Source: an uncultured Pseudomonadales bacterium
GTDB lineage: Bacteria > Patescibacteriota > Microgenomatia > UBA1400 > PJMF01
Assembly (NCBI GenBank): GCA_964645645.1
Contig: CAZYBC010000004.1
Location: 5,148-69,147 of the forward strand
Direction of reading: 5' to 3'
DNA length: 64,000 nt
The notes below the pieces were generated by a model. The model did no database searches and was not told the DNA's origin. It worked only from the letters and a program-made list of their open reading frames with translations. The position numbers were made by a program, and so were the translations under genes. Positions 3,448 through 40,872 of the stretch are shown here, in pieces; the first letter of the stretch is position 1; every line of letters begins with the position of its first letter.

Positions 3448-5450
3448 AAAATCTCGGTCAAAAATTAATTAAATATTCTTTATCTGCACTTAAAAATTTC
3501 CAGGAAATTTTTATCTTTTTTCTATTATTAAATTGTTTTTTTATCAATCAGCTATTTAGCAAAATTACAAATATAAATAAGTTACCAACTTTGATTAAAC
3601 AAATTGTTCACAATTGTCAGCAGATTGTACTAAAGGTTATGAACAAACTGGATAGAGGAAGCCGTGACAGTATTTCTCAAACTGAGATTATCCAAATTTC
3701 TCTTGAAAATATGTTTGTTAAAACTACCAGAACCGCAATTACAGTAGGAGGTATGAGCATTGCTATTGCCGTGATTGTTTTTTTAGTTTCTATTGGTTAT
3801 GGTTTACAAGATTTAGTTGTTTCTAGAGTTAGTAAATTAGAAGAAATGCAACAAACTGATGTGACTACTGGAGATGTAGGCAACTTATTTATTAATGATG
3901 AAAGCCTCAATGTTTTTTCTGGCATTAATCATGTTAAAGCTGTTTACCCAATTATTTCTTTAGTTGGAAAAGTCAGCATCAAAGAATCAGCCACCGAAGT
4001 AGTCATTAATGGCGTTACAAGCGATTATCTTAAAAACTCTGCTCTTAAAACCAGCAAAGGATATATTTTTGAAAATAAAGATACCACTCAGCCAGTCGCT
4101 GATAAAAAATTAACACTTACTCCTAGCCAAAACGTCGAGCCAGATATAAATGTGCTAATCGGTGAAGTTGAATTTTATCTTGATCAAAATCAATGGTTAG
4201 CAGTTAGAGAAGAACCTCAAAACAATGCCACTATCATTGGCTATACTCAACGCATCAATAGCCGAGCTCAAAATGGAGAAGAAGTCTGGGGAGAAAGTTA
4301 TAATAATGAGGAAACAACTGGCCAAGCTAGTGAGAGCGCTACTGGCCAAAAACTCGGTAAATGGATTAAAAGCGAAGTGGCTCTATGGGAAAAAACTGCT
4401 TGCGATGAAAGTAATTCTGATTGTATTAACGGCCAGTACTTAATGATTAGAGACAATAGCCAACAGCAACTAAAACAGATAGGTTATTTAACTGAAAATA
4501 AATTAACTGCCTATAGTTTAGTCAAACCACTGGGCGCCGAGACCAATAACACCATTAATGAAAACCAAAGCCAATCAATTGATGACCAAATTAAAGAATT
4601 AACTTCTCAAAACAAAGAAGAAGTTAGCAAAACTGAAAAAATAAAATTAAGTGATGAAGCTCAAAAAGAAATTATTGTTAATAATGCCATGGTGCAATTA
4701 TTAGGTGAAAATCTAGATAGCATTCTTAATAAAGAGATTGAAATTACCTTTATAGTTACCAGTGATCTAACCACTGGCCAACAAAATAAAAAAGTTGAAT
4801 CTTTTCCTGCTAAATATAAAGTGATTGGCATTATTAATAATGGCACTAATGCCATGGCTTGGGTACCCTTTACAGATCTACGCTCTTTAGGCATTAATAA
4901 TTATTCTAGTGCTAGAGTCATTTTGGATACAGATAAAAACCTAACAATTGTAAGAACTCAGATTGAGAATATGGGCTATAAAACAAATTCAGTGGCGGAC
5001 ACTGTTACTAAAATAAAAAATCTCTTTACTACTTTTAGAATTACCCTTGCTGCTATTGGAATGGCATCTTTAGGTGTAGCTGCACTGGGAATGTTTAACA
5101 CCTTAACAATTTCACTCTTAGAAAGAACCAGAGAAGTAGGCGTCATGAAAGCCATTGGCATGAAATCTAGAGAAGTTAGAGATTTATTTTTATCAGAATC
5201 AATGATCATGGGTTTTATGAGTGGTATTTTAGGAATTATCATTGGTTTTGTAGCTGGAAAAGTCACTGGTTTATTACTCTCTGTATTTTCACTCACTAAA
5301 GGTTATGGTTTATTGAATATTACTTCATTACCACTTTCTTTTATCTTGATAATTATGTTTTTATCAATTACAGTTGGATTTGTGACTGGTATCTATCCAG
5401 CTAATCGAGCGAAAAAAGTATCAGCATTAAATGCGGTGAGATATGAATGA
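3444..5450 (+). CDS. ABC transporter permease, FtsX/MacB-like, with a large extracytoplasmic domain
   Basis: N-terminal TM segment, about 400-aa soluble domain, then C-terminal FtsX-type TM helices (LLERTREVGVMKAIGM motif). Translationally coupled to the upstream ATPase. Confidence 0.8.
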   Translation: MKNLGQKLIKYSLSALKNFQEIFIFFLLLNCFFINQLFSKITNINKLPTLIKQIVHNCQQIVLKVMNKLDRGSRDSISQTEIIQISLENMFVKTTRTAITVGGMSIAIAVIVFLVSIGYGLQDLVVSRVSKLEEMQQTDVTTGDVGNLFINDESLNVFSGINHVKAVYPIISLVGKVSIKESATEVVINGVTSDYLKNSALKTSKGYIFENKDTTQPVADKKLTLTPSQNVEPDINVLIGEVEFYLDQNQWLAVREEPQNNATIIGYTQRINSRAQNGEEVWGESYNNEETTGQASESATGQKLGKWIKSEVALWEKTACDESNSDCINGQYLMIRDNSQQQLKQIGYLTENKLTAYSLVKPLGAETNNTINENQSQSIDDQIKELTSQNKEEVSKTEKIKLSDEAQKEIIVNNAMVQLLGENLDSILNKEIEITFIVTSDLTTGQQNKKVESFPAKYKVIGIINNGTNAMAWVPFTDLRSLGINNYSSARVILDTDKNLTIVRTQIENMGYKTNSVADTVTKIKNLFTTFRITLAAIGMASLGVAALGMFNTLTISLLERTREVGVMKAIGMKSREVRDLFLSESMIMGFMSGILGIIIGFVAGKVTGLLLSVFSLTKGYGLLNITSLPLSFILIIMFLSITVGFVTGIYPANRAKKVSALNAVRYE

Positions 5451-5454
5451 TGTT

Positions 5455-5670
5455 ATTGATCATAGGCTTTGTAAACACACCGCGAGCGGAATGGTTTACA
5501 AAGCCTATGATCAATAACTTAATTAAACACGCCGCAGGCGGAACGATTTACAAGATCTAATATTAGCTATTCTAGTTAAACGCACCGCAGGCGGAACGAT
5601 TTAGAAAGAACAATACTAAGATCATAACTTGATATTTTTTAAATGCACCGCAAGCGGAATGGTTTAAGCT
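5455..5670 (+). repeat. Tandem array of four REP-like imperfect palindromic units. The 26-nt cores are AAACRCRCCGC-NN-GCGGAAYGRTTTA, starting at 5473, 5525, 5578 and 5641. The first unit is embedded in a longer 22-bp-arm inverted repeat.
   Basis: Direct reading shows cores aaacacaccgcgagcggaatggttta, aaacacgccgcaggcggaacgattta, aaacgcaccgcaggcggaacgattta and aaatgcaccgcaagcggaatggttta. Flanking arms are ttgatcataggctttgtaaac / gtttacaaagcctatgatcaa. Confidence 0.8.
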
Positions 5671-11570: not shown

Positions 11571-12674
11571 GTGAAAAAAATCAAAAATTTACCACTACTA
11601 TTAATTATCACCTTCATCGCTCTAGCTTCTTTGCTTTTGGTTTATTACTTACCTCGTAGTCAAGATACTCGATCTAAAGGTTATACTGAAGAAACATCTG
11701 TCAGCCCACAAACAGTTCTTGAGCCAACTACCACAACTGTAGAAAAAACCAGAGAACCTCTGTACTTAGGCTTTATCGTTAAAACCATTAGTGATCAAGA
11801 CATTAATGATGTTAATCAGCTTAGCAATAATCAAGTCTCCTTAATTGGTTCATATATCCAATGGGGCAATACCGGTAACTCCAAATTTACTCCAGAATTT
11901 TTTCAAGTCTTTAAACGCAGACAGATAACTCCGCTAATTACCTGGGAGCCATGGGATCCCAGCGCTGGTGTTAATCAAAAAAACTATACTTTAAGAAGCA
12001 TCATTAATGGAGATCATGATGAATATATTAGACAATCAGCTCAAGCAATCAAACGCGCAGAAATGCCTGTCTTTTTACGTTTTGCCCATGAAATGAATGG
12101 CAACTGGTACCCATGGAGTGGCACTACAAATGGCAACACAGCTCAAGAATATAAAGCTGCTTGGCAACATGTCGTGGAACTTTTTCGTTCTGAAGAAGTC
12201 ACCAATGTTACCTGGGTCTGGAGTCCTAATTCTGCCAGCTATCCCAACGACCCACTCAATGATTTAGCAGCATATTATCCAGGTGATGATTATGTTGACT
12301 GGGTAGCTTTAGATGGCTTTAATTGGGGCACCAAACAGGCAAGCAGTGGCTGGCAAAGTTTTGACAGCATCTTTCAAGAGTCTTATCTCAAATTAGTCAA
12401 TTTAACTAGCAAGCCAATCATGATTGCAGAAGTTGCTTCTACTGAATTAGGTGGAAATAAAGCTACTTGGATTAAAGAAACTTTAGAACAAAGCTTAAAA
12501 GATAATTATGCTCAAATTAGAGCCGTGGTATTTTTTAACCTAAACAAAGAAACTGATTGGAGAATTGAATCTTCTCCCACCAGCGTCACTCAATTTATTG
12601 AATCACTCAATAGTTTGCCATTTGTTACTAATTTAAATTTACTAAATGGTAAAATTTTAGAACCATCACTTTAA
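11571..12674 (+). CDS. Secreted glycoside hydrolase family 26 (beta-mannanase-like)
   Basis: N-terminal signal/TM segment and RFAHEMNGNWYPWSG. Confidence 0.7.
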   Translation: MKKIKNLPLLLIITFIALASLLLVYYLPRSQDTRSKGYTEETSVSPQTVLEPTTTTVEKTREPLYLGFIVKTISDQDINDVNQLSNNQVSLIGSYIQWGNTGNSKFTPEFFQVFKRRQITPLITWEPWDPSAGVNQKNYTLRSIINGDHDEYIRQSAQAIKRAEMPVFLRFAHEMNGNWYPWSGTTNGNTAQEYKAAWQHVVELFRSEEVTNVTWVWSPNSASYPNDPLNDLAAYYPGDDYVDWVALDGFNWGTKQASSGWQSFDSIFQESYLKLVNLTSKPIMIAEVASTELGGNKATWIKETLEQSLKDNYAQIRAVVFFNLNKETDWRIESSPTSVTQFIESLNSLPFVTNLNLLNGKILEPSL

Positions 12675-12709
12675 ACCTGATTTTTTTAAAAGTTAGGTTA
12701 TAAAAAAGC

Positions 12710-13948
12710 GTGCCAACTAAGAAAAAAACAAAAACTGCCCATTCTGTTTTGCTTAAAGTTTTAGGCTTTTTATTTTTGTTTTCTTTATTCACCCTAAGTT
12801 TTTTTACTGTTGTTTCAATCAATTCCACCAAAAAAAATTATTTATCAAAACATAACGACCTGTTATTAAGTTATCTAAAAAATCCACCTGATAATATTCT
12901 TTTACAAGGTATTACTGGTTCAGCTAGCCTCAATACTTATTACCAGCTTGATTTAACAACTGACAGCAATTTGGCTTATCAACAACTAAAAAATCCACAA
13001 TTAAAGCAAGAACCACCCCAACTAAAACCGCTTACTCCTCCTACTGATTTTTCAGACCGATCAACTTCTGAATTAGGCTTTAAACTTTTACAAGAGTTAC
13101 AAAAATTTGTTAACAACACTCCTTTTTTAAATCAAAATGATGAGCTACGTGATTTTGTTGCCCTCAATAAAAATCAACTCCCTAAAGTGGCAATTATTGG
13201 CCGGTTTCAAAATTGGGCTGATCCGCGCACTAACCGTTTTGACCAATACTTTGTTAATAGTGTTAAAAAAATGGGTGCTATTCCATATATTACTTGGGAA
13301 CCTTGGGCTGAAAAAGAACAAGCCGATCCCAGCAATCAACCAGATTTCCGTTTAGCAAACATTGTTGAAGGTAAATTTGATAAATACATTAAAGAATATG
13401 CCAAAGAAGCAGCTAAGTTTAACTATCCACTTTTTATCCGTTTTGCTCATGAAATGAATGGTCATTGGTATCCTTGGGGAGGGAAAGTTAATCAAAATAC
13501 TCCAGAAGATTACGTGGCTGCTTGGAGACATATTCATCAAATTTTTAAACAAGAAGGTGCTCATAATGTCATCTGGGTTTGGTCGCCTAATGAACCTTAT
13601 GGTGGGGCTTCTAACCAGAATTCAGACTTATTTAATCTTTATTATCCAGGTGATGATTATGTTGATTGGGTGGGTTTTTCTGCCTACAATTGGGGCAATT
13701 ATCGAGAATATGATACTCCACGCACTTTTAAAGAAATCACTGATGCTTCATACCAACTTTTATCACAGTACAACAAACCTCTCATGATCTCAGAAATTAA
13801 TAGTGCTAACATTAATGTGGATAAATTAGCTTGGATAAAAGAAATGAAAAAAACTATTTTGGATTATCCAAAAATAAAAGCAATTGTTTGGTATGAGAGT
13901 GAACAACAAATGCCTTTTAAAATTGAAGAACAACTTTTTTTTCAATAA
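12710..13948 (+). CDS. Secreted glycoside hydrolase family 26 (beta-mannanase-like), paralog of 11571-12674
   Basis: RFAHEMNGHWYPWGG, ITWEPW and YYPGDDYVDWVG are shared with the upstream paralog. Confidence 0.7.
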   Translation: MPTKKKTKTAHSVLLKVLGFLFLFSLFTLSFFTVVSINSTKKNYLSKHNDLLLSYLKNPPDNILLQGITGSASLNTYYQLDLTTDSNLAYQQLKNPQLKQEPPQLKPLTPPTDFSDRSTSELGFKLLQELQKFVNNTPFLNQNDELRDFVALNKNQLPKVAIIGRFQNWADPRTNRFDQYFVNSVKKMGAIPYITWEPWAEKEQADPSNQPDFRLANIVEGKFDKYIKEYAKEAAKFNYPLFIRFAHEMNGHWYPWGGKVNQNTPEDYVAAWRHIHQIFKQEGAHNVIWVWSPNEPYGGASNQNSDLFNLYYPGDDYVDWVGFSAYNWGNYREYDTPRTFKEITDASYQLLSQYNKPLMISEINSANINVDKLAWIKEMKKTILDYPKIKAIVWYESEQQMPFKIEEQLFFQ

Positions 13949-13951
13949 CTT

Positions 13952-15415
13952 ATGAAAAATTTTATAGTAACTAAACTAGCTAAAAAAAAAGAATTAATCT
14001 TTATTTTTTTGCTAACAATTTTAGGCGCTTTACTAAGATTTAATAATTTAGCTAGTAAAGAATTTTGGGAAGACGAAGCTTTTACTGGTATAATTGTCAA
14101 AGAAAATTGGGCTGAAGCTTGGAATTTAACTCTCAATGACACTCATCCACCGTTATATAACATGTTACTAAAAGCATGGGGAGAACTATTTGGTTATACT
14201 GATTTTGCTTTAAGAAGTTTGTCTGTGGTTTTAGGTACTCTGACTATCCCATTAGTTTTTTATTTGGTTAAAAAGCTCCAAAATTTATCTCGCTTAACTC
14301 CTTATTTTGCAGCAATTATCGTTACGGCTAACCCATTTTTAGTTTATTACTCTCAGGAAAGCCGCTCTTATGCCTTATTAGGGTTAGTGACAGTCTTAAC
14401 AACCCTAGCTCTTTACCAAGCCTTAACTCAACCAAAGTTACAATTAAGTAAAAATTGGTTAGCTCTCAGTTTTTTATTAACCTTAGGTATTTTTACTCAT
14501 TATATTTTTTTCTTTACTGTCTTAGGAGTGGGTTTAACTATTTGTAGTTATTGGCTAGCAAATCATCAACTACAATTAAAAAATCTCAAACATTTAGCAC
14601 TCATTACTATTGAAACAAGCTTTTTACCTCTCTTAAGTTTTGCGCTGTGGTGGCCATTATTTAAAACCCAAACCAACGTAGCCAAAGATACCACTGCCTG
14701 GATTCAGCCTGTTAATTTTAGCTATCTAATCAGAGATGCTTATATTGCTTTTTTTGGCTTTAACCAACATTGGGCCAGAATTCTGCCCATCACTGAACCT
14801 TTTGCCATTATTATTTTGTTATTGATTTTCAGCTTGATTATTTATACCCTTATCAAAACTAAAAATAGATTGGCGCTTCTATTTAGTTTTGTCATGAGTA
14901 TCGTCCCAATTTTAGCTATCATCATTGTCTCACTTTATTTTGGCAAACATCTTTTTTTGGAAAGATATTTAATTGGCTTTAATATTTTCTTGCTCATTTT
15001 TATCATTACAATTATTGCCGAAACAGAAAAAAAATTACTGATTTATCCGCTCGTTGGTTTTTATTTATTAATTGCTTGTAACTCTTTATTCAACCCTCAA
15101 GCTGGAGCTGATAAAGCTCAACAAAACTTAGGTTATAGAGAACTAAATAATTACATTAAAAACAGCAATAAAACTTTTGTCTTTGCCGACCCATTTGAAT
15201 TCACCATTGCTAAATATTATTTAGATAAAGAATTTTGGCCTAAAATCAAAGTTTTTGATTACCGCCAAGGATTATGGTATGGCACTTGGTTACTAATAGA
15301 TGACGTAGACTGCGTCAACCCTTGGACTATGAACAATTACCTGGTGGTTAACTATGATCCGTTTAATAGGGGAGAAGCAATCAGGATTAAGGAATTTAAG
15401 CTTTATGAACAGTAA
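13952..15415 (+). CDS. Integral-membrane GT-C glycosyltransferase (GT39/ArnT/PMT-like)
   Basis: About 11 predicted TM helices plus an N-terminal FWEDEAF loop typical of the GT39/ArnT fold. Confidence 0.55.
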   Translation: MKNFIVTKLAKKKELIFIFLLTILGALLRFNNLASKEFWEDEAFTGIIVKENWAEAWNLTLNDTHPPLYNMLLKAWGELFGYTDFALRSLSVVLGTLTIPLVFYLVKKLQNLSRLTPYFAAIIVTANPFLVYYSQESRSYALLGLVTVLTTLALYQALTQPKLQLSKNWLALSFLLTLGIFTHYIFFFTVLGVGLTICSYWLANHQLQLKNLKHLALITIETSFLPLLSFALWWPLFKTQTNVAKDTTAWIQPVNFSYLIRDAYIAFFGFNQHWARILPITEPFAIIILLLIFSLIIYTLIKTKNRLALLFSFVMSIVPILAIIIVSLYFGKHLFLERYLIGFNIFLLIFIITIIAETEKKLLIYPLVGFYLLIACNSLFNPQAGADKAQQNLGYRELNNYIKNSNKTFVFADPFEFTIAKYYLDKEFWPKIKVFDYRQGLWYGTWLLIDDVDCVNPWTMNNYLVVNYDPFNRGEAIRIKEFKLYEQ

Positions 15416-17324: not shown

Positions 17325-17957
17325 TTAATGAGTACTTAGACTTTCAGTAAGCGCCCTACCAATCAATTTTTCTAAAAGAGTTAAATCACCTTCATCACCA
17401 GCTTGCATGGCTTTAAGATATTCCTTCCTATCATCATCTGTTCCGACTTGTATTTCAATAGGTGGTAATTTTAATTTCAGTAAAATAAGCGATGTTAATA
17501 TCCGAGCAGTTCGACCATTGTAGTCTTGAAATGGATGAATAAAGACAAACCTATGTTGAAACCAAGCAAGGAAGCAAACGACCTTATCTATATATTCTGG
17601 ATCATTAGATTTAGGCAAACTATTAAGCTGCGCCTTTAAATCATCTAATAAATTTTTAACCAATTCTGGTATTTGAAAATATGCTGGTGCTTCTTTTCCA
17701 GAATAAGTAACTTGGATAGTTCTAAACTTGCCTGCCCAATCAGGGAAAATCCATTGAAAAGAAATCGCATGGAGTTTAAGAATCAATGAAGTAGTAATTT
17801 CTGTGTTTTTTCTAGACTTGATTAAATCATAAATAAACTCTAAGCCTTTTTTTGTGCCTTCTAACTCAAATTGAAGTAATTTTGTGCGAGGAATAATACC
17901 AAAAGCGGTTTCTTTGAAAGAAGTTGCACCTAGTGGTTTTGTGCTATCAATAGACAT
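17325..17957 (-). CDS. Fic/Doc-family protein (putative AMPylating toxin)
   Basis: Fic motif HPFQDYNGRTAR, a variant of HPFx(D/E)GNGRxxR. Confidence 0.75.
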   Translation of the reverse strand: MSIDSTKPLGATSFKETAFGIIPRTKLLQFELEGTKKGLEFIYDLIKSRKNTEITTSLILKLHAISFQWIFPDWAGKFRTIQVTYSGKEAPAYFQIPELVKNLLDDLKAQLNSLPKSNDPEYIDKVVCFLAWFQHRFVFIHPFQDYNGRTARILTSLILLKLKLPPIEIQVGTDDDRKEYLKAMQAGDEGDLTLLEKLIGRALTESLSTH

Positions 17958-17960
17958 TGT

Positions 17961-18134
17961 TTACTTAAATAACGCATTCACCATCTTGCGAGTAACTGGT
18001 TCACCCTCAAGTTTGGTGGTTCTGAAAATCATCTCAGGCATAGCAGCAAGAAACGCACTTAGTAATGACTTTTTAGTGGTTTTCTTTTTTTTATAGCTAG
18101 TATATGCCTTATGAAGGCGAGATTGCTTTTTCAT
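17961..18134 (-). CDS. Unannotated 57-aa ORF immediately upstream of fic, a putative VbhA-like Fic antitoxin
   Basis: The reverse complement reads MKKQSRLHKAYTSYKKKKTTKKSLLSAFLAAMPEMIFRTTKLEGEPVTRKMVNALFK. It contains TTKLEG, which matches the inhibitory (S/T)xxxE(G/N) motif. Its stop lies 3 nt before the fic ATG. Confidence 0.5.
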   Translation of the reverse strand: MKKQSRLHKAYTSYKKKKTTKKSLLSAFLAAMPEMIFRTTKLEGEPVTRKMVNALFK

Positions 18135-18369
18135 AGCTGAGAGTATTATAGCTCAAAAATCTTGAGGAATCTTTAGAATAAATATTGTGCCAGAATCGTG
18201 CCGCGTATCGTACCAATAAAAGTAAAATTAGTAATTATAATAGATTGGACATATGATGCCAGAAAAATTACTCTTGGAAAACCCTATTTATATGGCTATA
18301 GAAATCCAGAAAATAACATTTTTTGGTTATTTAATGAATGTATAACAGAAATGTTAAATATCGAAATAT

Positions 18370-18910
18370 TAGATAGTTGTGAAGCTCGCCGGGCTAAAGC
18401 CCGGAGCTTCACAGCGGATCTGTGTTTAGTTTGCTGATATACTTGCCTGTATGACAAGCAAGTATCAGGTAGGCTCTCATACTAAACATCGCCTTATTTA
18501 TCACTTCACTTTTATCCCTAAATACCGTAAAGAAATTATTAGAGGAAAGCTTAAAAAAAGACTGATTGAACTCTTTAACGAGTGCGCTTCTGTTAATAAT
18601 TGGTTAATCCTTCAATTGGAAATTCTTTCTGATCACGTCCATTTACTTATTCAACTTAATACTGATGATTCTCCTGCCAAAACTATGCAATTCCTTAAAG
18701 GTGGTTCTTCCATTGTGATCAGAAAAGAATTCCCTGATATCAAAGCTTTCCTCTGGGGTGACTCCTTCTGGGCCGATGGCTATTTTGTGGAAACTATCGG
18801 TATTAAAAATGAAAAAATTATCAGAGCCTACCTGGACTCTCAGCAAACTAAACACTCTAAGCCTCGCATTCACCACCGGGCTTGAAAGCCCGGCGTTCTC
18901 TGCTCAGGCG
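18370..18910 (+). mobile_element. IS200/IS605-family insertion sequence (tnpA only) with subterminal hairpins
   Basis: Left hairpin gaagctcGCCGGGCtaaaGCCCGGagcttc at about 18377-18406. Right hairpin CCGGGCttgaaaGCCCGG at about 18871-18888. The Y1 transposase gene lies between them. Confidence 0.75.
18451..18885 (+). CDS. tnpA: IS200/IS605 Y1 (HUH) transposase TnpA
   Basis: 144 aa with the HUH motif LSDHVHLLI, the typical IS200 TnpA size, and flanking hairpins. Confidence 0.85.
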   Translation: MTSKYQVGSHTKHRLIYHFTFIPKYRKEIIRGKLKKRLIELFNECASVNNWLILQLEILSDHVHLLIQLNTDDSPAKTMQFLKGGSSIVIRKEFPDIKAFLWGDSFWADGYFVETIGIKNEKIIRAYLDSQQTKHSKPRIHHRA

Positions 18911-19286
18911 TTATAGAAAAGTAGGTACTGATTATTTAAGCAATAATACAATTGGATATGCTCACTCAATTATTTTTATAGACGCTCTTATAAAACGAAC
19001 GTCAGAATTATCTGGAAAATCTGAAACAGAGATAAGATATTCATTATATTCTGGGTACTTGAGAGGTGATCACAGTGCACTAAGGGTTTTTAAAGAAACA
19101 TTTGGAGTTAATGCTTTGAGTTATTTATCAATTCTAGATGATTCACATTCATCATGGATGTATATTGAAATAGTTGCAAAAAAATTTGGATTCAAACCTG
19201 ATGAAATAGAACAAATGAAAATAAAAGCACAAGATTATGTCGAAAATAAAAAACCAATTAATATTATGGGAGGAATAATAATATAA
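18882..19286 (+). CDS. Hypothetical protein. The true start is probably internal, because the 5' end overlaps the IS right end.
   Basis: ORF only. Confidence 0.3.
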   Translation: MKARRSLLRRYRKVGTDYLSNNTIGYAHSIIFIDALIKRTSELSGKSETEIRYSLYSGYLRGDHSALRVFKETFGVNALSYLSILDDSHSSWMYIEIVAKKFGFKPDEIEQMKIKAQDYVENKKPINIMGGIII

Positions 19287-19662
19287 AAAGTTTAACCCTT
19301 TTTACAAGTTAAATTTCTCAAAAATTAATCTAGATATCCCATGCAGTCTTGTAATGGGTTCTTGTACAAAAGAGTTAATAAATGGTGATACAAGCGACTG
19401 TGAAGGAGACGTTTATACTACTGAGAGAGGTCAAGATAGATGTATAACAAAAAAGCTAGAAAATTTTGAAGTTACTCAAGATAAACTGATATGGTATGGA
19501 AAAAAACACGATCTTTAGAATAAAAATTTTGGGGTCGGTCACCATACTTAATAAGTAGTAGTTTGATGCAGTCGGTAGAGCGTATTTTAGCAGTGTTTGA
19601 TGATGCGGTGCAGTTTGGGCTGGTATCACTTCGATTGAATGAAATATACAACTTACAACTTA

Positions 19663-21414
19663 CTAGCTATTCTTCGTAAAAAGCACTGGAGTATTTGATT
19701 GCGGGCAAACGCCCTCAATTATGTTTGTTTGAATCACTATGGGCATTGGAAATTCATTTCCCGTTAACAAGGCCTGCCCCCTTTTGAAGGTTGGTAAAAA
19801 TGACAACAACCCTAAAGAACTATCTTGCACCGAATTCTTGATTGCCTCAATATCTCGGTCATTTATTAACCTATGAGCTATGAATGTTCCCATTTGACTT
19901 AATACACCTGCAGGAATATCTGCTGGTCTTTGTGTGCTAAGGCATAAAAAAAGTCCAAATTTTCTAGATTCTTTTGCTAGCTTTGCAAATGCGTCTAGTC
20001 TGTATTCGTTAGAGTATTCATCTTTTACTCGATCACGTTCAAAAATTAGGTGGGCTTCATCTACCATTAACACAACTGGTTTCAATTTAAAATTTTTAAA
20101 TACATCTAACTGCTTCCTCAATCCCTCAAGAAAAAACCTACCGATTGCATTACTAAATATATCCCTAGCATATGCATCAGTCGGAATTTGTGAAACGTCA
20201 AGCAAAAGCAATTTTTCGTTAGAATTATAAAATTCAATAAACTCATTCGCAAACTCTTTTAACTCACTTATCTTCTTAAAACCGAACAAAGTTGAAATAC
20301 CATTCTTAACCCTTAAATTTGATATTCTTCTGACAAGGGATGTGCAATGATCCAGGTGTCCCATATTCTGACCACCCCATAAAGCATAATTTTTTTCACC
20401 TTGTCTTGAACCAAATGCAGCGTCGTATACACACTCATACTCTATCTGCTTCATTAATTTTCCAATATCAAAGTCAGCGTATTCATCTTCGACTTGTTCA
20501 ATATATTGTTCATACAAAGTGTTATATTTTACTTTTTCCAAATTTTCTTTAATTATGTACCCTTCCTTAACAATTTCGGATTCATCTGCAACTTTGGCCA
20601 ACTTAAGACTTCTTATGGCTTGTTGCAAAATTGGTTCTTGAACTTGCCCAGATGGTCTAAAAAGTGCAAATAAATCAGATTCAGTCAACTTCTGATATGG
20701 AAAATTTGTGTCCCCACCTTCTCCAAATTTTAACCTTCGTGTATATGTTTGTTTACCAAATACCTCAAATTCACCATTTGCGTCTATTAATACAATTTTG
20801 GAATTATTTTTTTTAACGAGTTCTTCAATTAATTTTGCTAAGGTATAACTCTTCCCACTACCAGTAGTGCCAACAATTGCACAATGTCTTGATAATAGCG
20901 CGTTTGCAGATACTCTGATTGCTTTAGCTGAATCAGAATCGAGCTTGGCTAGTTCAAGTAGATCTTGAGGCGAATTTTTATCGTTTGTCTTCTTGCCAAA
21001 ATCTTTGATTAATTTTTCTAATAATGTAATTGGACAAGCATAGGCTTTTGCACCTATTTCGGGATATTGCTCTACGCCTGCGCCATTGTTCACTAAACTA
21101 AATGAATCGAAAGATAATTGAAATTCAACGATTGCAACGGGATAAGAATTGCTTTTTTTAATTGCAGAACTGCTTTCATATGAAGAATTTTTATCCTGCA
21201 ATACAACCTTGATAGTTTTCGCTAACAAACCATAACCATGCCCCTCAATCACCACATAATTACCAACGAGTCCACCCTGTAGGATTTCACCATCATAATA
21301 AAATCTATCAAGTAATTTAGGAGATGGGAAACAAACGCTTGCTGTTGTAGGCGTAACAGAAGAAACATATCCAATGAACCGTTCACGATTAAAAGGGGAC
21401 GCCGTCATCTTCAA
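19663..21414 (-). CDS. herA: HerA-like (DUF87) ATPase of a SIR2-HerA anti-phage module
   Basis: Walker A GTTGSGKSYTLAKL, Walker B VVLMVDEAHLIF. About 580 aa. Overlaps the upstream SIR2 gene by 26 nt. Confidence 0.75.
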   Translation of the reverse strand: MKMTASPFNRERFIGYVSSVTPTTASVCFPSPKLLDRFYYDGEILQGGLVGNYVVIEGHGYGLLAKTIKVVLQDKNSSYESSSAIKKSNSYPVAIVEFQLSFDSFSLVNNGAGVEQYPEIGAKAYACPITLLEKLIKDFGKKTNDKNSPQDLLELAKLDSDSAKAIRVSANALLSRHCAIVGTTGSGKSYTLAKLIEELVKKNNSKIVLIDANGEFEVFGKQTYTRRLKFGEGGDTNFPYQKLTESDLFALFRPSGQVQEPILQQAIRSLKLAKVADESEIVKEGYIIKENLEKVKYNTLYEQYIEQVEDEYADFDIGKLMKQIEYECVYDAAFGSRQGEKNYALWGGQNMGHLDHCTSLVRRISNLRVKNGISTLFGFKKISELKEFANEFIEFYNSNEKLLLLDVSQIPTDAYARDIFSNAIGRFFLEGLRKQLDVFKNFKLKPVVLMVDEAHLIFERDRVKDEYSNEYRLDAFAKLAKESRKFGLFLCLSTQRPADIPAGVLSQMGTFIAHRLINDRDIEAIKNSVQDSSLGLLSFLPTFKRGQALLTGNEFPMPIVIQTNIIEGVCPQSNTPVLFTKNS

Positions 21415-22681
21415 TGTCCTCTCTAGCAGGTTCTTTTATTAATATACCTTCATGTCTAGCTTCGAAAGTTTTTTCGGCCTCCTCATCAAAGTTAATTGGA
21501 ATTTCATTAACAAATCTTTGAAAAGTATCAGCAATCAATGTGATGTTATTATTTGTTTGATCACTAATTTTTTTGTTGAACATCGACACAACTTCTTGAG
21601 AAGATTTTTCGTCAGTTATTTTTGGTGATACTATTGCTAATTCGAAATTGAGATTAGACTCCAATGCTTCTAAAACCGCTCGATTGATATGTAGATCACT
21701 AAAACTATAGCCGATAACGAGCAAAACGGTATTTTCCTTTCTTAACGTCTGCTGAAACCTTGACATCATTTCAAAAAATGGCATTTGATAGCTTTGCTCG
21801 AATTTATGATTACTTGGGGGAATTATCATCGGATCATCGCTTGGTGTTTGGAGTCGTATAACTTGCGCTTTGTCTTCTGATCCTTCCCAATCTAAAGAAC
21901 CATGAAGTTTGAATAGTTGAAACACTTTTTCCTCATAATTTTCCTGGTCGTGAATTCTGTGATGTTCTCGTTTGACAATATCTAAGTCGAAATTTGAACC
22001 ATGAAAGACGGGTTTTCTAGTAAATGAAAACCCATCAACAATTGTGGCATTAATCATTTCACCTGCTTGCTCAAATAAAGTATCGTAATTCAATGTATAT
22101 AGCTGTAATCTACGTTTGTTTGAACTGCGAGCAGATATGACACTTTTTAAAAATTTCTTATGTGGTGAATTATCATGTAAAAATAAATTGCATTCACTTT
22201 TAATCGTTTTTATTATTGATTGCTTGACTTCGATGCATAATGATACATTTTCTTTTGTTTCTTGTCGTATATCGTATTCATTAGCTGTAGAATACATCTC
22301 AAGTTTGCTAATGAATCGCTCAAGCTGAAAATTATCTTCTTTTTCATTTAACAAATTTTGAAGAGCAGACACCTTCTTTTCATCAATATTTTTTTTGCAT
22401 TCAACCCAAATTTGCCCAACAGTTTTACCAGTATATTTGGTAGATGTTGTATCTAGGCTCTTGCCTTTTTTATCTAAAGTGATGGATGTGCCAGCTCCAG
22501 TTAATACCACAAAGTTGTCAGCCAACAGCCACTCTTTTAATTTTTGAGATATTTCTTGATATGCTAATTTTATACTCGACTCATCAATATAAGTAGAAAC
22601 ACCATCTGTTAATTTTACTTGGGCTTTTGAATTAGCTTTAATGCCAGTACTTGATTTGATCAGAGATAGAGTATCTCCCAT
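21389..22681 (-). CDS. SIR2-domain protein (NAD+-consuming effector of the SIR2-HerA defense system)
   Basis: Sirtuin-fold motifs VVLTGAGTSI (GAGxS), YTLNYDTLFE (TxNxD) and FKLHGSLDW (catalytic His-Gly). Paired with herA. Confidence 0.7.
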   Translation of the reverse strand: MGDTLSLIKSSTGIKANSKAQVKLTDGVSTYIDESSIKLAYQEISQKLKEWLLADNFVVLTGAGTSITLDKKGKSLDTTSTKYTGKTVGQIWVECKKNIDEKKVSALQNLLNEKEDNFQLERFISKLEMYSTANEYDIRQETKENVSLCIEVKQSIIKTIKSECNLFLHDNSPHKKFLKSVISARSSNKRRLQLYTLNYDTLFEQAGEMINATIVDGFSFTRKPVFHGSNFDLDIVKREHHRIHDQENYEEKVFQLFKLHGSLDWEGSEDKAQVIRLQTPSDDPMIIPPSNHKFEQSYQMPFFEMMSRFQQTLRKENTVLLVIGYSFSDLHINRAVLEALESNLNFELAIVSPKITDEKSSQEVVSMFNKKISDQTNNNITLIADTFQRFVNEIPINFDEEAEKTFEARHEGILIKEPAREDIEDDGVPF

Positions 22682-22713
22682 ATATTCCTCACTATCATTT
22701 GTTAACTATTTAT

Positions 22714-24165
22714 TTAACTCGCTTTCACCAACGATGCCTCCAATTCCTCGAATTGCTCTAAGGCATTACGAAGGTTTTCGGTAATTTCAGCAAGTAATAT
22801 CTCTGGCTCAGGTAGGTTTTCTAAATCTTCAAGCGATTCATCTTTAAGCCAAAAAATGTCCAAGCTCGTATTGTCACGCTTTATCAATTCGTCGTAAGAA
22901 AACATTTTGAAACGGTTGGTTTCAGAGCGTTCATGGCGATTGGTGGGGTTGTAGCAAGCAATGAAGTCCTCAAGGTCTTTTAAGGTCATCATATTTTGTT
23001 TTAAGGTGAAGTGTTTATTGGTTCTAAGATCGTAAAACCAAACCTCTTTTGTCCAAGGGTTTTCACTAGCTGGCTTTTTATCAAAAAAGATCACATTAGC
23101 CTTGACTCCATTGGCGTAAAAAATCCCAGTCGGTAATCGTAGGATGGTATGGACATCATAGTCATGCAGTAGCTTCTTGCGTATCGTTTCACCCGCGCCT
23201 GCTTCAAATAGTACATTGTCAGGAACTACCACCGCAGCACGACCACCAATTTTTAGTAGTGTTTTGATGTGTTGTAAAAAGTTTAATTGTTTGTTGGAAG
23301 TAGTCGCCCAAAAGTCTTCTCGCTCATAGGTTTGTTGTTCAGATTCAACCTCTCCAGCGGTATTGGTAATTTTAATACTGCTTTTTCGCCCGAAAGGTGG
23401 ATTAGTTAATACCAAGTCGAATCTATCGCCAGGGTCAGAAATAAGGCTATCTCCTACAGTTACAGGGCTGTTTTCACCGCCTATGCCATGCAAGAACAAG
23501 TTCATAGCACACAGTCTGGCGGTATTATCGACAATATCCCAGCCTTTAAAGGTGTTATTTCGTACAAACATCTGTTGGTCGATATCAAGCTTATGGTGTT
23601 CGTTTAGGTATTCATTAGTTGCTAGGAAAAATCCACCGGTACCACAAGCCGGATCGCACACCGTTTGGCCTGGTTCTGGTCGCATAACCTCCACCATAGC
23701 TCGAATTAAAGCTCTAGGGGTAAAGTATTGCCCAGCTCCGCTTTTGGTATCTTGGGCATTTCGTTCAAGCAAACCTTCGTAGATTTCACCTTTAACGTCT
23801 ACATCTAAGCCCATCCAAGTTTCACCATCGATCAAACTAACCAATCTTTTTAGTTTTGCAGGGTCTTGAATACGGTTTTGTGATTTACGGAAAATTAGGC
23901 CAAGTAAACCGCCTTCTTTTGAAAGCTCAAGCAAAATATGGCGATATTGTGCTTCAAGGTCAGTACCGTTGAGTTTAATTAAACTAGCCCAATCTAAACC
24001 TTCTGGGATTATTGAGGCTCTTTTGGTTAGCTTTGTTTGTTCATCAGCCATTTTGAGGAATAGAAGATAGGTAAGCTGTTCGACGTAATCGCCATAGCTT
24101 ACTCCGTCATCCAACAAAACAGTGCAAAATCCCCAAACTTTATTTACGATATTTGATTTTGTCAT
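22714..24165 (-). CDS. hsdM: Type I restriction-modification N6-adenine DNA methyltransferase HsdM
   Basis: Motif I VCDPACGTGGFF, motif IV LTNPPFG, HsdM N-terminal domain. Confidence 0.9.
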   Translation of the reverse strand: MTKSNIVNKVWGFCTVLLDDGVSYGDYVEQLTYLLFLKMADEQTKLTKRASIIPEGLDWASLIKLNGTDLEAQYRHILLELSKEGGLLGLIFRKSQNRIQDPAKLKRLVSLIDGETWMGLDVDVKGEIYEGLLERNAQDTKSGAGQYFTPRALIRAMVEVMRPEPGQTVCDPACGTGGFFLATNEYLNEHHKLDIDQQMFVRNNTFKGWDIVDNTARLCAMNLFLHGIGGENSPVTVGDSLISDPGDRFDLVLTNPPFGRKSSIKITNTAGEVESEQQTYEREDFWATTSNKQLNFLQHIKTLLKIGGRAAVVVPDNVLFEAGAGETIRKKLLHDYDVHTILRLPTGIFYANGVKANVIFFDKKPASENPWTKEVWFYDLRTNKHFTLKQNMMTLKDLEDFIACYNPTNRHERSETNRFKMFSYDELIKRDNTSLDIFWLKDESLEDLENLPEPEILLAEITENLRNALEQFEELEASLVKAS

Positions 24166-25307
24166 ACTAATTTCCCTTCAAAAGCTTGTTTTAAAATTGA
24201 TTGCTTAAGTTGATTGGTTTTTATTTTTGTCATTTGTAATAAGTTATTCAAATACGCTACTTTCGAAGATATTTCTTCATATTCTAAGTATGCCTGTTCA
24301 ACTGTTTTTCTTTCTGGTACCGGCACACATATTCTTGCAAGAGTTGATTGACTAATAGTGTTTTGCCCGGCCGATGACACCTTGTTTAGCTGAACAAACT
24401 TTCTCATCTTCGAAGTATTCATATACATCTGTACCCACTCAGCTAGATAAGGTTGTTTTAATCGAAATCGAATAAAATGATCACAGAATGCAATATCACC
24501 ATCTAGCCTATTACATAAAATCATTCGTCCAACAAAATTAGTACTCCCGTTAACACGGATGCACAATAAATCGTTTTCAGATAATTTATATTTTTCAATT
24601 TCGTTTTGATCTAATAAAATTGATCTTGTTTTTGTTAAATCTAATTTTTGGTCACTAATATCTGCCAACCTAACAACAACAGTATTTATTCCTGTTGTCC
24701 CAGAACGTTTGCTAATACCATTTTGAGATAGTTCAAATAATTCAGGAAATGTAATCAAATTTGAACTTGGTTGAACATTGTTAAACAATCTTTCAAGCCA
24801 TGAAGCTCTATATGTTTCTGTTTCTATAATTAATTTTTTTATTTCACCTATATTTACATCAATCACTGAAAACAGCTCTTCAATTTTATCGACGATTTTT
24901 TGTTGGTCATCTATTGGAGGGAGTGGAATTTGTAAGGGTGACAAATTAGTCCGAGTAATTTGCGGCTGTGCTGAACCTGAAATTACTTTTGAAAAATCAG
25001 AGCCTATCAAAGCGTATTTTAAAAACAACTTATTAAGGTTATCAGTTTTTGGTTTTGCAACCATTGAATTACCTGTAATCCACGAAAACGCTTCACTAAA
25101 ATTTATCGTTCCACAAGTTGCCCCACGACAAGTAATACAAACCTGTTCATCTTCATGATTGTATTGGTCATAATATCCTATGACGCCATTAGCGCCATAA
25201 ACCTTATATTTCCCATATTTTAAAATTTGCTTTGATGTAATAGTTTTGGGTTGGTATAAATCACACACATCCCCCAAACTTACTTTTTTATAAATACTAT
25301 TTGTCAT
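24162..25307 (-). CDS. hsdS: Type I R-M specificity subunit HsdS (two target-recognition domains)
   Basis: 381 aa with a two-TRD architecture and conserved central and C-terminal helical repeats. 4-nt overlaps with hsdM and hsdR. Confidence 0.8.
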   Translation of the reverse strand: MTNSIYKKVSLGDVCDLYQPKTITSKQILKYGKYKVYGANGVIGYYDQYNHEDEQVCITCRGATCGTINFSEAFSWITGNSMVAKPKTDNLNKLFLKYALIGSDFSKVISGSAQPQITRTNLSPLQIPLPPIDDQQKIVDKIEELFSVIDVNIGEIKKLIIETETYRASWLERLFNNVQPSSNLITFPELFELSQNGISKRSGTTGINTVVVRLADISDQKLDLTKTRSILLDQNEIEKYKLSENDLLCIRVNGSTNFVGRMILCNRLDGDIAFCDHFIRFRLKQPYLAEWVQMYMNTSKMRKFVQLNKVSSAGQNTISQSTLARICVPVPERKTVEQAYLEYEEISSKVAYLNNLLQMTKIKTNQLKQSILKQAFEGKLV

Positions 25308-28012
25308 ATCACTAAATAACTATTCAATTCATTTGTAATCTGCTCTAGTTGCCCGCCAAACACCTCATGAGCCTTAAAGATACCACCCCTATCTCTGAAT
25401 GGAGGTAACTCAAAACTAGTGATTTCTCCATTAAGCTGAATTGAGCCATTGATTGCCACAAAGTCTTTAATCATTTTAAGCCAAAAAAGTTGATCGTCAG
25501 AAAATTGCATACCTTTGGCATGAGTATCATCCAGCCATTTTTGGAATCGCTCTTCAACTGTAGTGGGGAATGGTTCGAGGTCTTGGGATTTATCTACCGC
25601 AAATCGGACTAAGGAAACAATGTTAGTTAACACTCGATCTGGCCTGGCATTTCTGACCTTTGATTTATACAGCTCTCGATATGCATTCCATAGCTGATCA
25701 TTGGTGAATCTGACATTGGCATGAAGCAACCTATCTCGAAGTTCCTTAATTTCTTGGAAGGTCAAAGCCTGTTTTTTGTACGGCTTGTTAAAGATAATTT
25801 GCAAGGCAGTAATTTCATCTTGATTTTGTTTGATGTACTCCTCAAAACTTTGGACTAATTCTTGTGGGGCGATTGGTTCGGGCTTCGGAACGTCAATCGG
25901 ATTGTCTGGGGATAGGTCAATCACTATTTCATTGCGTTGTTTAATATCGAGCATTAACTGTCTAAAGTCGGGATTATCGAAATAATTTAGAGCCTCTTGT
26001 TTCTGTTGTTGCTTTTGCTCATCAGTGCCAGCTTTGTCAGGGTCGATCACATCTAAAAGTTCGTGAGCCACTTGTTTTAAGGTAACTCCATTATTGGCTT
26101 GTTGTAGTTCGTCTTTATCGGAATCAGATAATGATTGTTCAAATTTGGAAATACGACCAGCCAGAGAGGCAATCCCATCATCATCAATGGTTCTTAGGGC
26201 TGCACTTTCAAGCAAGGATTTGAATGACACAAATGGTTGACGCTCAAGAGTACGAGAATCAGTTTTTACGCTTTCAGTTACCCCAACAGCATCAAAAATT
26301 ACAAATCTGTTTTTGTAATCTGCATCAGGTGTGACAGCTTTAAGGTCATCCTCGCCAATGGTACGAGTCCCTCGACCCTTCATCTGCTCAAAATAAACTC
26401 GGGATTTGACATCACGCATAAAGATCAAGCACTCAAGGGGTTTGATGTCGGTACCAGTCGAAATCATATCAACCGTAACGGCTATACGTGGGAAATATGA
26501 ATTGCGGAAACTTTGAATTAAATCTTCGACGTTTTCGCCTGTTCGGTAGGTAATCTTTTTTGCAAACTGATTTCATTTACCAAATACTTCACGCACGATA
26601 TGAACAATCTCCTCTGCATGGTTATCATCTTTGGCAAAAATCAAAGTTTTGGGAACAGTTTCACGATCAGGGAAAATATCAGGCAACCAGTTTTTGAATA
26701 CTCGTATAACAGTTCTAATCTGATCGGGGGCAACTACACTTCGATCAAGCTGACTAGCTTCATAGGTTAAATCTTCATCTAATTGCTCCCATCTAAGTTT
26801 TCTAGTTTGACGATCACGAACATCAACAAAAGTGCCTTGATTGATGGTATTACCTTGCTCACCAATTTGAGTTTTGATGCGGTATACGTCGTAACCAACG
26901 TTAATTCCATCAGCTACAGCACGTTCATGAGAATACTCCATGATGAGATTGCTATTGAAAAAGCCTACCGTATGTTTTGATGGCGTGGCAGTTAATCCTA
27001 TTAGAGTAGCGTCAAAATACTCAAGGACTTGTCGCCAAAGGTTATAAATAGAGCGATGGCATTCGTCGGTTACAATAAAGTCAAAGGTTTCGATAGGTAG
27101 TTTAGGATTGTATTCAACTGGTGCATTATCTTCGTAACTAAAAGCAGGTGGATTATCAAATTGTGAACCTTCTTCCAATGTTTCATCAAAATCTTGATTT
27201 CCTGAAAGAATTGAGTACATGCGTTGGATGGTGCCAATGCAAACTTTACTAACCGGATCAATGCTGGGGCTTTTAAGATGCTGAACGTTGTATAGCTCGG
27301 TAAACTTGCGGCCATCATCGGGAACGGTAAACTTTTGGAATTCTTTGAGTGTTTGTCTGCCCAAGTTGCCACGATCGACTAAAAATAAAATACGTTTGGC
27401 TTTGCCATATTTAAGCAATCGGTAAATAAACGAAGTAGCAGTAAAAGTTTTACCACTACCTGTGGCCATTTGAAGTAAAGCTCGGGGATCGTCTTTGGCC
27501 AATGATTTTTCAAGATTGGTGATAGCCTCAATCTGACAATCACGAAGGCCAACCACGTTTAATTCTGGGAATTTTTGCAAACGACCTCTGAGGGTTGAGT
27601 CATCTTGCACCCATTCAAGTAATGTTTCTGGTTTATGGAAGGCGAACAAGCGTCTGGATCTAGGTTGTGGATCACGTTCATTTCGAAAAAAAGTTTCTGT
27701 TCCAGTACTTTCGTAAGCAAATGGTAGGTTTTCATCCACCTTGGGTAAATTTGGATCGGTACTGGTAATGTACTTGCCAGATTGTTCGGCAACACCGCTA
27801 AGGGTAGTGCCTGCCGCTTTGGCTTCGACTACACCCACTGCTTTTCGATCAACAAAAAGCATGTAATCGGCTGGTCCTTTTTGGGTTGGAAATTCTCTTA
27901 CAGCAACACCTAATTTTGCTCCTAGATTTAATCTGGAGCGATCTTGAATATCCCATCCTGCCTGGATGAGTAATTTATCGATATCTTGTCGTGCTATTTC
28001 TTCTGGTGTCAT
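25304..28012 (-). pseudogene. hsdR: Type I restriction endonuclease HsdR, interrupted by a single in-frame TGA at 26573-26575
   Basis: N-terminal part 26573-28012 has QMATGSGKTFTA and DECHR. C-terminal part 25304-26572 continues in the same frame straight after the TGA (...REVFGK*NQFAKKITYRTGENVEDL...RIAVTVDMISTGTDIKP...QMKGRGTR) with no other stop or frameshift. Confidence 0.8.
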
Positions 28013-31870: not shown

Positions 31871-31882
31871 TACAATATTGAT

Positions 31883-32083
31883 ATGTATAATTGGAACATA
31901 GACACTACTAAATTAAAGAAAAATCCTGATGAATACGCTAAATTTATTTTAGAACAAAGAATTAATTTTGGACTAAATGGTAAAAAACTTTCATTAAAAA
32001 ACCTTAAAAAATACTGGAACGAGTTAGATATTGATTTGGCAAAAAAAAATTATTTACAAAAAATTATATGGCCTCAATCTTAA
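31883..32083 (+). CDS. Small hypothetical protein overlapping the start of the downstream nucleotidyltransferase gene. It could be a cognate antitoxin.
   Basis: 66-aa ORF with a 16-nt overlap with 32068-32724. Confidence 0.3.
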   Translation: MYNWNIDTTKLKKNPDEYAKFILEQRINFGLNGKKLSLKNLKKYWNELDIDLAKKNYLQKIIWPQS

Positions 32084-32724
32084 CTAAACAACAAAAATTA
32101 GCTTTAAAACTTATTGCACAAACGCAACTTGCTTCATTTTTTTATTTTTCTGGTGGAACAGCTTTAGCACATTATTATTTACGACATCGCAAATCAGAAG
32201 ATTTAGATTTTTTTTGCGAAAATGAATTTGATCCACAACAAATTACGATCATTTTAAAAAGTATTCAAAATAAACTCAAGTTTAATGAATTTGATTTTCA
32301 AAATAGTTTTAACCGAAATTTATATTTTTTAAAATTTGATGATAATTATGTTTTAAAACTTGAATTTACTTATTATCCTTTTCAACAAATTGAAAAACCT
32401 TCAAAAAAAGATAATTTATTAATAGATAGTCCAATTGACATCGCTACTAACAAATTATTCACCATTGTCCAAAAACCCAGAGGTAGAGATTATTATGATT
32501 TGTATTATTTAATTGATAAATATGGCTACCAAATTGAAGATTTACGCATGAAAGCTAAGATTAAATTTGATTGGCATATTGATCCATTACAATTAGCTTC
32601 TAGGTTAAATGAAGTTGACCTAAAATTAGATGATCCAATTCTTTTAAAAAAAATCAATAAGAAAAAATTGATTAATTTTTTTCAAAATGAAGCCATAAAA
32701 TTAAGCAAAAAAATTTTAGATTGA
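32068..32724 (+). CDS. AbiEii/DUF1814-like nucleotidyltransferase (third copy)
   Basis: FSGGTALAHYYL...RKSEDLDFF matches the GGTAL...RxSxDLDF signature shared with 39125-39823 and 43443-44201. Confidence 0.55.
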   Translation: MASILTKQQKLALKLIAQTQLASFFYFSGGTALAHYYLRHRKSEDLDFFCENEFDPQQITIILKSIQNKLKFNEFDFQNSFNRNLYFLKFDDNYVLKLEFTYYPFQQIEKPSKKDNLLIDSPIDIATNKLFTIVQKPRGRDYYDLYYLIDKYGYQIEDLRMKAKIKFDWHIDPLQLASRLNEVDLKLDDPILLKKINKKKLINFFQNEAIKLSKKILD

Positions 32725-32754
32725 GATAATTTTTACACCACCTTTTTTATTTAC

Positions 32755-32897
32755 TTTGCCATTCCGCCTGCGGCGTATTTAATTAGGAAATTAGTAATAC
32801 ACTTTGTAAACCATTCAAACGAAGCTTGTTGCGTTTAATTAAGCTGTTGATGTAAACCATTCCACCTGTGGTGTGTTTACAAAGCCTATGATCAATA
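32755..32897 (-). repeat. Tandem array of three REP-like units of the same family as 5455-5670, in reverse orientation, at the 3' end of the second FtsX-like permease gene
   Basis: Reverse complement gives aaatacgccgcaggcggaatgg (32759-32780), a degenerate middle copy (32808-32836) and ttgatcataggctttgtaaacacaccacaggtggaatggtttac (32852-32897). The last is near-identical to 5455-5500 except ccgcgagcgg becomes ccacaggtgg. Confidence 0.75.
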
Positions 32898-32900
32898 GAC

Positions 32901-35701: not shown

Positions 35702-35704
35702 TGA

Positions 35705-40401: not shown

Positions 40402-40404
40402 ATT

Positions 40405-40865: not shown

Positions 40866-40872
40866 GAAAACT

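Follow-up and report, generated by a model that had tools for sequence, protein, structure and literature searches.

In E. coli, REP sequences located just past stop codons stabilize or down-regulate the messages upstream of them. It has been reported that a REPIN consists of two REPs in inverted orientation, with conserved ends and a variable paired spacer (PMC3337134), and that REPINs are mobilized by RAYTs (Bertels and Rainey, PMC3116915, PMC3337134). No description of REP- or MITE-like repeats in Patescibacteria was found in the papers searched, in agreement with the initial annotation of this DNA, where the hairpin family considered here was called uncharacterized for such organisms. In the window, that is, the whole stretch of 64,000 nucleotides (64 kb) analyzed here, the family was found in singles and head-to-tail arrays. 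The joint reading that we favor, and hold to be moderately probable, is that of a lineage-specific REP-like hairpin repeat of a CPR bacterium, which spreads non-autonomously and serves as a 3' transcript hairpin.

The repeat is built on a 27-nt core with the consensus TAAACACACCGCAAGCGGAATGGTTTA, of which eight clear copies were detected in the 64-kb window at up to six mismatches to the 27-mer. Together with one unit whose inner hairpin was swapped and two decayed units, 11 units were counted in five intergenic loci. The earlier observation of at least nine copies was confirmed (eight cores and the swapped unit, plus the decayed two), and the case for the family is somewhat stronger than it had appeared there. 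Four cores are on the + strand (5472-5498, 5524-5550, 5577-5603 and 5640-5666) and four on the - strand (32853-32879, 32755-32781, 43394-43420 and 45292-45318). The pattern proposed in the initial annotation gave seven matches in the window, compared with 0.16 expected, and seven or more matches were obtained in none of 100 shuffles. A covariance model built from the copies (R1) matched these sites only in the window. All 11 units are outside ORFs of at least 100 aa, and they are thus intergenic, as had been stated. Within the arrays the period is 52-63 nt.

Array A comprises four + strand units. The first, A1 (5452-5518; core 5472-5498), is a full-length hairpin (77.7 bits with R1) which begins 1-5 nt past the stop codon of FtsX-A (5448-5450). 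In A2 (5524-5550, 45 bits) only the core is left and the outer arm is degraded. A3 (5577-5603, 60.6 bits) has the core and a right arm, GAAAGAACAATACTAAG, which is similar to an arm of the copy on L008, a contig of a related strain. The final unit, A4 (5640-5666, 60.7 bits), is again a core only. Array B is on the - strand. Its unit B1 (32835-32895; core 32853-32879; 40.3 bits), with the inner stem CCAC/GTGG, is positioned after the FtsX-B stop codon (32901-32903) and has one outer arm short by 10 nt. B2 (32807-32837) retains both core flanks, and its inner hairpin is swapped for AACAAGCTTCGTT. B3 (32755-32781, 58.3 bits) is a core with a damaged 3' outer end; the convergent AbiEii-1 gene (32068-32724) stops 30 nt away from it.

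The remaining three loci are also on the - strand. S1 (43374-43440, 78.8 bits) is a full-length hairpin whose core (43394-43420) equals the consensus exactly; it lies downstream of AbiEii-3, 2-8 nt from the stop codon (43443), and directly upstream of a promoter-like site of the next gene. S2 (45272-45338; core 45292-45318; 72.8 bits) is also full-length, with the inner stem CTAC/GTGG and stem 1 closed by T-A, and is placed between the divergent AbiEi-3 and uvrA genes. A decayed pair of units, also listed in the initial annotation, is found at 39061-39115, downstream of AbiEii-2 and about 9 nt from its stop codon (39125). Its alignments to the core are marginal, but the 9-mer AAGCGGAAT occurs twice in this interval on the correct strand, compared with a whole-window expectation of 0.63. 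The region is 100% identical in L008.

A full-length unit is a 59-67-nt imperfect palindrome, in which the conserved 27-nt apical module sits on a basal stem of 16-20 bp whose sequence drifts between copies while its pairing is retained; the whole stem amounts to about 27-31 bp. In the core, stem 1 (5 bp) pairs positions 1-5 with 23-27 and is followed by a bulged A/G at position 6, stem 2 (2 bp) pairs positions 7-8 with 21-22 with a bulged AA at 19-20, and the GC stem (3-4 bp) pairs positions 9-11 with 16-18 around a CNNG loop. Since the bulges are asymmetric, the two halves of the core are not equivalent (ACA and AATG), and this asymmetry was seen in every copy. The flanking inverted arms described in the initial annotation were recovered as 16-20-bp outer arms in A1, S1, S2 and the L008 copy (L008 7553-7611). 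The full-length copies were folded as one long hairpin as both RNA and DNA, with z from -4.6 (S2) to -13. For A1, the values were -41.9 kcal/mol as RNA (z -12.2) and -28 kcal/mol as DNA (z -12).

Pairing was examined in a covariation alignment of eight copies and 59 columns. Standard pairs made up 81% of the cells, compared with 31-40% when the 3' partners were slid by 1-3 columns. Two-sided changes were observed at 17 of the 27 pairs, and the observed values were reached in none of 500 shuffles. The compensatory changes reported earlier for the inner stem were confirmed: the variants are CCGC/GCGG, CCAC/GTGG and CTAC/GTGG, in which a G-C pair is replaced by A-T in B1 and S2, and S2 also carries a T.G pair. 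The covariation reaches beyond that inner stem to stem 1, stem 2 and the entire outer stem. For example, the closing pair of stem 1 is C-G, T-A or T.G, an A-T pair of stem 2 is G-C in A2, and one position of the outer stem is G-C in A1, C-G in S1 and T-A in S2. Similarly, between A1 and the copy downstream of the FtsX gene in L008, 5 of 16 outer-arm positions are different, each of them with a compensating change. Two sub-types of outer arm can be distinguished, and part of the variation may therefore separate sub-family masters rather than represent changes in place.

The initial annotation concluded that the hairpin is under selection. Conservation of pairing over primary sequence was upheld by the alignment; selection on the hairpin itself is the likely reading of this covariation. 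Perfect compensation could alternatively originate in template-switch correction of palindromes, without selection. G.U and C.A mismatches on the sense strand showed no clear bias, and these small counts favor neither an RNA-level nor a DNA-level function.

The positions and orientation of the copies are closely related to the genes beside them. Arrays A and B each follow a three-gene operon encoding a large fn3 surface protein, an ABC ATPase and an FtsX/MacB-type permease. The proteins of these two paralogous operons are 38-51% identical, and the arrays are about 80% identical and collinear unit for unit, spacers included. As homologous and collinear arrays, they represent a single origin and not two. 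The other loci are independent. The proteins AbiEii-1, AbiEii-2 and AbiEii-3, on the other hand, are merely 25-29% identical to one another, and copies beside such divergent genes indicate that the element has dispersed. Restriction to a single duplicated segment, which the initial annotation had named as the outcome contrary to its reading, was therefore not what was found: copies are located 3' of three AbiEii genes of such low mutual identity and of FtsX genes.

In every case where a gene ends beside a unit, the strand carrying TAAAC-A-CA is the coding strand of that gene. The base of the hairpin is 1-9 nt past the stop codon for A1, B1, the L008 copy, S1 and the decayed pair, while S2 is not at the 3' end of any gene. 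The earlier statement that most copies are at the 3' ends of convergent genes did not hold, because convergent flanks were found at array B only; the flanking genes are co-directional for array A, S1 and the decayed pair, and divergent for S2. Cumulative GC skew peaks at about 12000-15400, where gene orientation turns from + to -, and this peak may be the replication terminus. If so, the same strand of all copies would be on the lagging-strand template. The orientation of the copies to transcription is thus confounded with their orientation to the inferred direction of replication.

All copies in the window adjoin AbiE or FtsX/ABC modules, and none was found in the remaining ~50 kb, which includes a defense cluster at 17-28 kb. 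This confinement to two gene families points to linkage to the modules more than to free transposition. The defense cluster itself (17325-28012) encodes Fic, SIR2_2 with an anti-phage-type HerA helicase, and a type I restriction-modification system whose hsdR is split into the ORFs 26573-28012 and 25304-26467. Repetition of another kind was noticed in a coiled-coil protein gene (59476-60300), which contains a direct repeat at 59550-59742 with a period of 78 nt and 84% identity.

The distribution of the repeat was found to be narrow. Homologues of UvrB, FtsX and AbiEii placed the host in Patescibacteria, in the Microgenomates/Woesebacteria-Pacebacteria neighborhood, with the closest named UvrB 63-67% identical. 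The identical organism was present in the Logan assemblies SRR11845627 and SRR11845629, and a strain with 96-100% nucleotide identity in SRR29243425; the same copies were found at the same places in all three. Among the collections searched, the repeat recurs in near-identical strains only. The strict core pattern (43-bit) gave no match in the GTDB species genomes (596 Gb) or the JGI metagenomes. The relaxed pattern gave none in the IMG/VR viral contigs and two in the JGI metagenomes, both of which are chance matches, as they are within the uvrA coding sequence (K-R-A-T-G-R-T-I-Y). A BLAST search with the 69-nt hairpin against phages and plasmids returned no match. Furthermore, loci totaling 970 kb, or about 1 Mb, in the genomes of 80 related Patescibacteria were scanned with mismatches and with the covariance model, and the repeat was absent from them. 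In Rfam, only three tRNAs of the window passed the gathering threshold and no family matched the repeat; permissive scans gave merely sub-threshold matches to miRNA-precursor-like hairpins. Exact look-ups of proteins of the window led, for the minority with a record, to short contigs that are identical or near-identical. No pair of filled and empty sites was found among the strain contigs compared, and no transposition event was seen. Contigs of SRR29243425 break at the copies, L002 starting directly after unit A2 and L008 stopping 6 nt past its copy. This suggests that the repeat or its palindrome fragments short-read assemblies of this lineage, and hints at its repetition in the genome.

Among known repeat systems, the REP/BIME elements of Enterobacteria and Pseudomonas share a number of features with the family. 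Like them, it comprises short imperfect palindromes that are strictly extragenic and species-specific, occur as singles and clusters, carry asymmetric bulges that mark the strand, keep their pairing while part of the sequence drifts, and occupy sites just past stop codons. However, REPINs are conserved at the base and variable at the apex, whereas here the apex is conserved and the paired base is variable; the arrays are head-to-tail and not inverted doublets as in BIMEs and REPINs. In contrast to REP-RAYT systems, no RAYT adjoins any copy in the 64-kb window, and the host is a CPR bacterium. The initial annotation had proposed a REP/BIME-type or MITE-like repeat. 'REP-like' is a fair name for these dispersed, intergenic, imperfect palindromes, but the hallmarks of BIMEs/REPINs and of MITEs are absent. 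MITE membership was rejected since the outer arms differ among copies, no target-site duplication was found and there is no similarity to the resident IS. Around the copies neither a target-site duplication nor a conserved flanking tetranucleotide was visible, and no direct repeats flank A1, S1, S2 or the L008 copy. Membership in the REP-RAYT/REPIN, MITE or attC class is not established, as several defining features of these classes are missing.

An association with a RAYT/IS200-like gene, which had been suggested for testing, was not supported in the window. The sole Y1_Tnp gene there (18451-18885; Pfam 1.4e-34) matches the IS200/IS605 TnpA structures 2EC2, 2A6M and 2XM3, and no RAYT entry matched it at E <= 0.01, so the only Y1 protein of the window is a canonical IS200/IS605 TnpA. 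The hairpins bracketing tnpA (CCGGGC...GCCCGG) are unrelated to the core and were found nowhere else in the window. A link between the family and this TnpA was ruled out because the end hairpins are unrelated and confined to the IS. An exact-protein look-up of TnpA yielded no further contig. The IS itself is TnpA-only and of the IS200/IS605 type (18378-18896); its left end forms a hairpin at 18378-18411 and its right end one at 18877-18894. Two long-range inverted repeats of 16 nt, perfect or near-perfect, connect the 3' end of tnpA with its start and 5' leader (18422-18437/18840-18855 and 18466-18481/18819-18834).

In form, the family still resembles the end hairpins of IS200/IS605 elements and of their miniature derivatives, PATEs, which are subterminal imperfect hairpins recognized as single-stranded DNA; the left-end hairpin of the resident IS (18378-18411) likewise has an AT-rich outer stem, a bulge, a GC inner stem and a 4-nt loop. 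The copies differ from such ends in having no sequence similarity to the resident IS and in being single hairpins without a left-end/right-end pair. A further likeness is to dispersed repeats of terminator-like form, such as SPRITEs of Streptococcus pneumoniae, and to intrinsic terminators, which are stable hairpins directly 3' of a coding sequence and co-oriented with the gene. However, there is no U/T tract here and the ~27-31-bp stem far exceeds a terminator stem. No T-run follows A1, A4, S1 or S2. An intrinsic terminator was rejected, as the terminator scan of 31-46 kb listed no copy of the repeat; it did list the canonical hairpins with a T-run at 42426-42412 and 42394-42356.

The favored reading, a lineage-specific REP-like repeat, includes two stages. 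The repeat would have dispersed non-autonomously as a small element; the likeliest route is one in which its hairpin, in single-stranded DNA, is processed by an HUH/Y1-type enzyme whose gene is outside the window, the two strands being told apart by such an enzyme through the conserved asymmetric bulges. A copy that has settled downstream of a gene would become the 3' end of that gene's mRNA, where its role is probably that of a 3' transcript hairpin. The long stem could form a 3' stem-loop acting as a barrier to 3' exonucleases and/or as a transcript-end insulator between modules. Such a role would account for the retention of pairing copy by copy.

The exclusive association with AbiE and FtsX/ABC modules also sustains an RNA-based alternative linked to these modules and, less likely, one in which the copies mark cassette boundaries. 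The former, which we consider possible but unlikely, is a non-mobile cis-acting 3' RNA element of the host, recognized by a protein or by RNase III and regulating the AbiE and FtsX/ABC operons. Its copies would have been spread solely by recombination or gene conversion with or between these modules. That every copy adjoins such a module and none is elsewhere in the 64 kb would be expected of it, as would the sense orientation of all copies within about 10 nt of a stop codon and the pairing kept copy by copy. The similarity of the arrays (about 80%, compared with 38-51% for the neighboring proteins) also fits conversion or strong constraint. However, S2 is away from any gene 3' end, and tandem arrays of 3-4 units with decayed or truncated members typify selfish repeats and not regulatory sites.

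The same modules without the element argue further against a regulatory site belonging to them. The nucleotide homology of the AbiE-3 module with its counterpart on L093, a contig of another organism, runs from the promoter to the stop codon, and no hairpin follows it in L093. The element thus belongs to this genome and not to the incoming module, and the possibility that it is part of a mobile AbiE module was ruled out on this basis. Likewise, a conserved 3' element of FtsX operons was ruled out, since the downstream regions of the homologues in 80 Patescibacteria share no such hairpin; several of them have ordinary hairpin-plus-T-run terminators. With AbiE-3 of L093 and the FtsX operons of the 80 relatives lacking the element, it is not intrinsic to either module. 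FtsX-A and FtsX-B share 26 of their final 27 coding nucleotides. Gene conversion into the coding end is a needless explanation of this: the C-terminus SALNALRYE does not vary within the phylum, and 25 of 27 are matched by unrelated, AT-rich relatives that have it. For the mosaic of L008 and the window, breakpoints of recombination at the elements were also rejected, since identity falls off gradually and not at the copies.

The cassette alternative draws on the genomic setting of the copies. Sedentary integrons have as a hallmark toxin-antitoxin cassettes with species-specific palindromic repeats. Here, uvrB and uvrA are 13.6 kb apart (31870-45446), while in relatives uvrA directly follows uvrB (L003-L005) or is separated from it by a PhdYeFM/ParE toxin-antitoxin pair (L006). 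The island between them contains three AbiE modules, FtsX operon B and a diversity-generating retroelement (DGR), and four of the five element loci are in it, at junctions of modules. The AbiEi/AbiEii module 3 (43443-44989; L093 3213-4762) has counterparts with 85-91% protein identity in more than 100 clusters from many lineages of Patescibacteria (Gottesman-, Roizman-, Woese- and Amesbacteria), whose housekeeping UvrB is at most 73% identical. From these sequence comparisons, AbiE-3 looks like a toxin-antitoxin module spreading horizontally within CPR.

Other features of the island were recorded. The DGR is complete (40720-43371), with a template repeat (TR) at 40720-40865, bAvd at 40873-41229, a reverse transcriptase at 41216-42400 and a variable repeat (VR) at 42462-42607 (146 nt, 91% match), the VR being at the 3' end of a target gene of the Lcl_C C-type-lectin fold (42478-43371, - strand). 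Directly next to the VR end there is a perfect palindrome of 16 bp (42432-42464), and 42426-42412 forms a GC hairpin with a T-run. A link of the repeat to the DGR was rejected: the TR/VR end CGGTGTGTGTTTTAG is superficially core-like, but it encodes the C-terminus ...FRCVF before the stop codon, and the DGR has its own palindrome at 42432-42464. Directly upstream of the AbiEi-2 start codon there is a near-perfect, operator-like palindrome with 24-bp arms (40400-40448), inside which L008 starts.

In the cassette alternative, the copies would be boundary recombination sites comparable to attC sites of chromosomal integrons (such as the VCR of Vibrio cholerae) or pdif sites, and the uvrB-uvrA modules would have been captured beside the hairpins by a site-specific or hairpin-specific recombinase. 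This enzyme might be one that has no relation to IntI and whose gene is elsewhere, and it would probably read the hairpin as folded single-stranded DNA. The likeness to attC (VCR) sites extends to a species-specific imperfect palindrome of ~60-130 nt located 3' of accessory, often toxin-antitoxin, genes, to the uniform orientation along an array, and to extrahelical bases that mark one strand. The separation of uvrB and uvrA by the module island agrees with capture, and AbiE-3, AbiE-2 and FtsX operon B on the - strand each end in a co-oriented copy. At the island edges, S2 adjoins uvrA, and a strain 96% identical in uvrB diverges exactly at the uvrB stop codon; the end of the AbiE-3/L093 homology at the stop codon is only a few nucleotides from S1. 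However, no integrase, tyrosine recombinase or serine recombinase was found among the annotated ORFs of the 64-kb window. No R'' (RYYYAAC) or R' (GTTRRRY) boxes are shared at the stem bases (GTTATTGATC.., TTAATATTAG.., CTTGGTAAG.. and TTTATATATAG..), and conservation is apical, the opposite of attC. In contrast to integrons, intI was not found in the window; the modules comprise several genes under promoters of their own, and some are on the other strand. Moreover, the left boundary of AbiE-3 is ~215 nt from S2, and there is no element at the uvrB edge of the island. We therefore regard this explanation as improbable.

AbiEi proteins bind inverted repeats. The copies might accordingly be imagined as double-stranded DNA operators for a dimeric protein such as the AbiEi antitoxin/repressor, since they are palindromic sites adjoining AbiE modules. 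This is very improbable, as the two-sided changes preserve pairing and not a fixed half-site, the halves are consistently asymmetric (ACA and AATG), and most copies are 3' of operons and not at promoters; the AbiEi-2 promoter has the separate operator-like palindrome at 40400-40448, and nothing of the element is seen in the conserved promoter of AbiE-3. A degenerate CRISPR array, chance or an assembly artifact has next to no probability: array A does have 27-nt repeats with a period of 52-63 nt, but 4-6 of the 27 positions are different from one repeat to the next, the 'spacers' of array A are homologous to those of array B, no cas genes or domains were found in the window, chance is excluded by the shuffles, and the copies recur in Logan assemblies made independently.

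As the evidence stands, a well-known class of repeats is modestly extended: a familiar REP-like type is met in a new host, with no earlier REP-like repeat for Patescibacteria found in the papers searched. It indicates that structurally constrained repeats persist in the tiny, gene-dense genomes of CPR bacteria, even at the episymbiont size of about 1 Mb. In practice, such repeats seem to fragment short-read assemblies of the lineage, where Logan contigs end at the copies, and might be used as strain markers. The family also gives a handle on how accessory islands with toxin-antitoxin, defense, surface-protein and exporter operons are organized, insulated or exchanged. If the cassette explanation were true, it would mean an integron-like platform in CPR bacteria and a new type of gene-capture site with a conserved apex.
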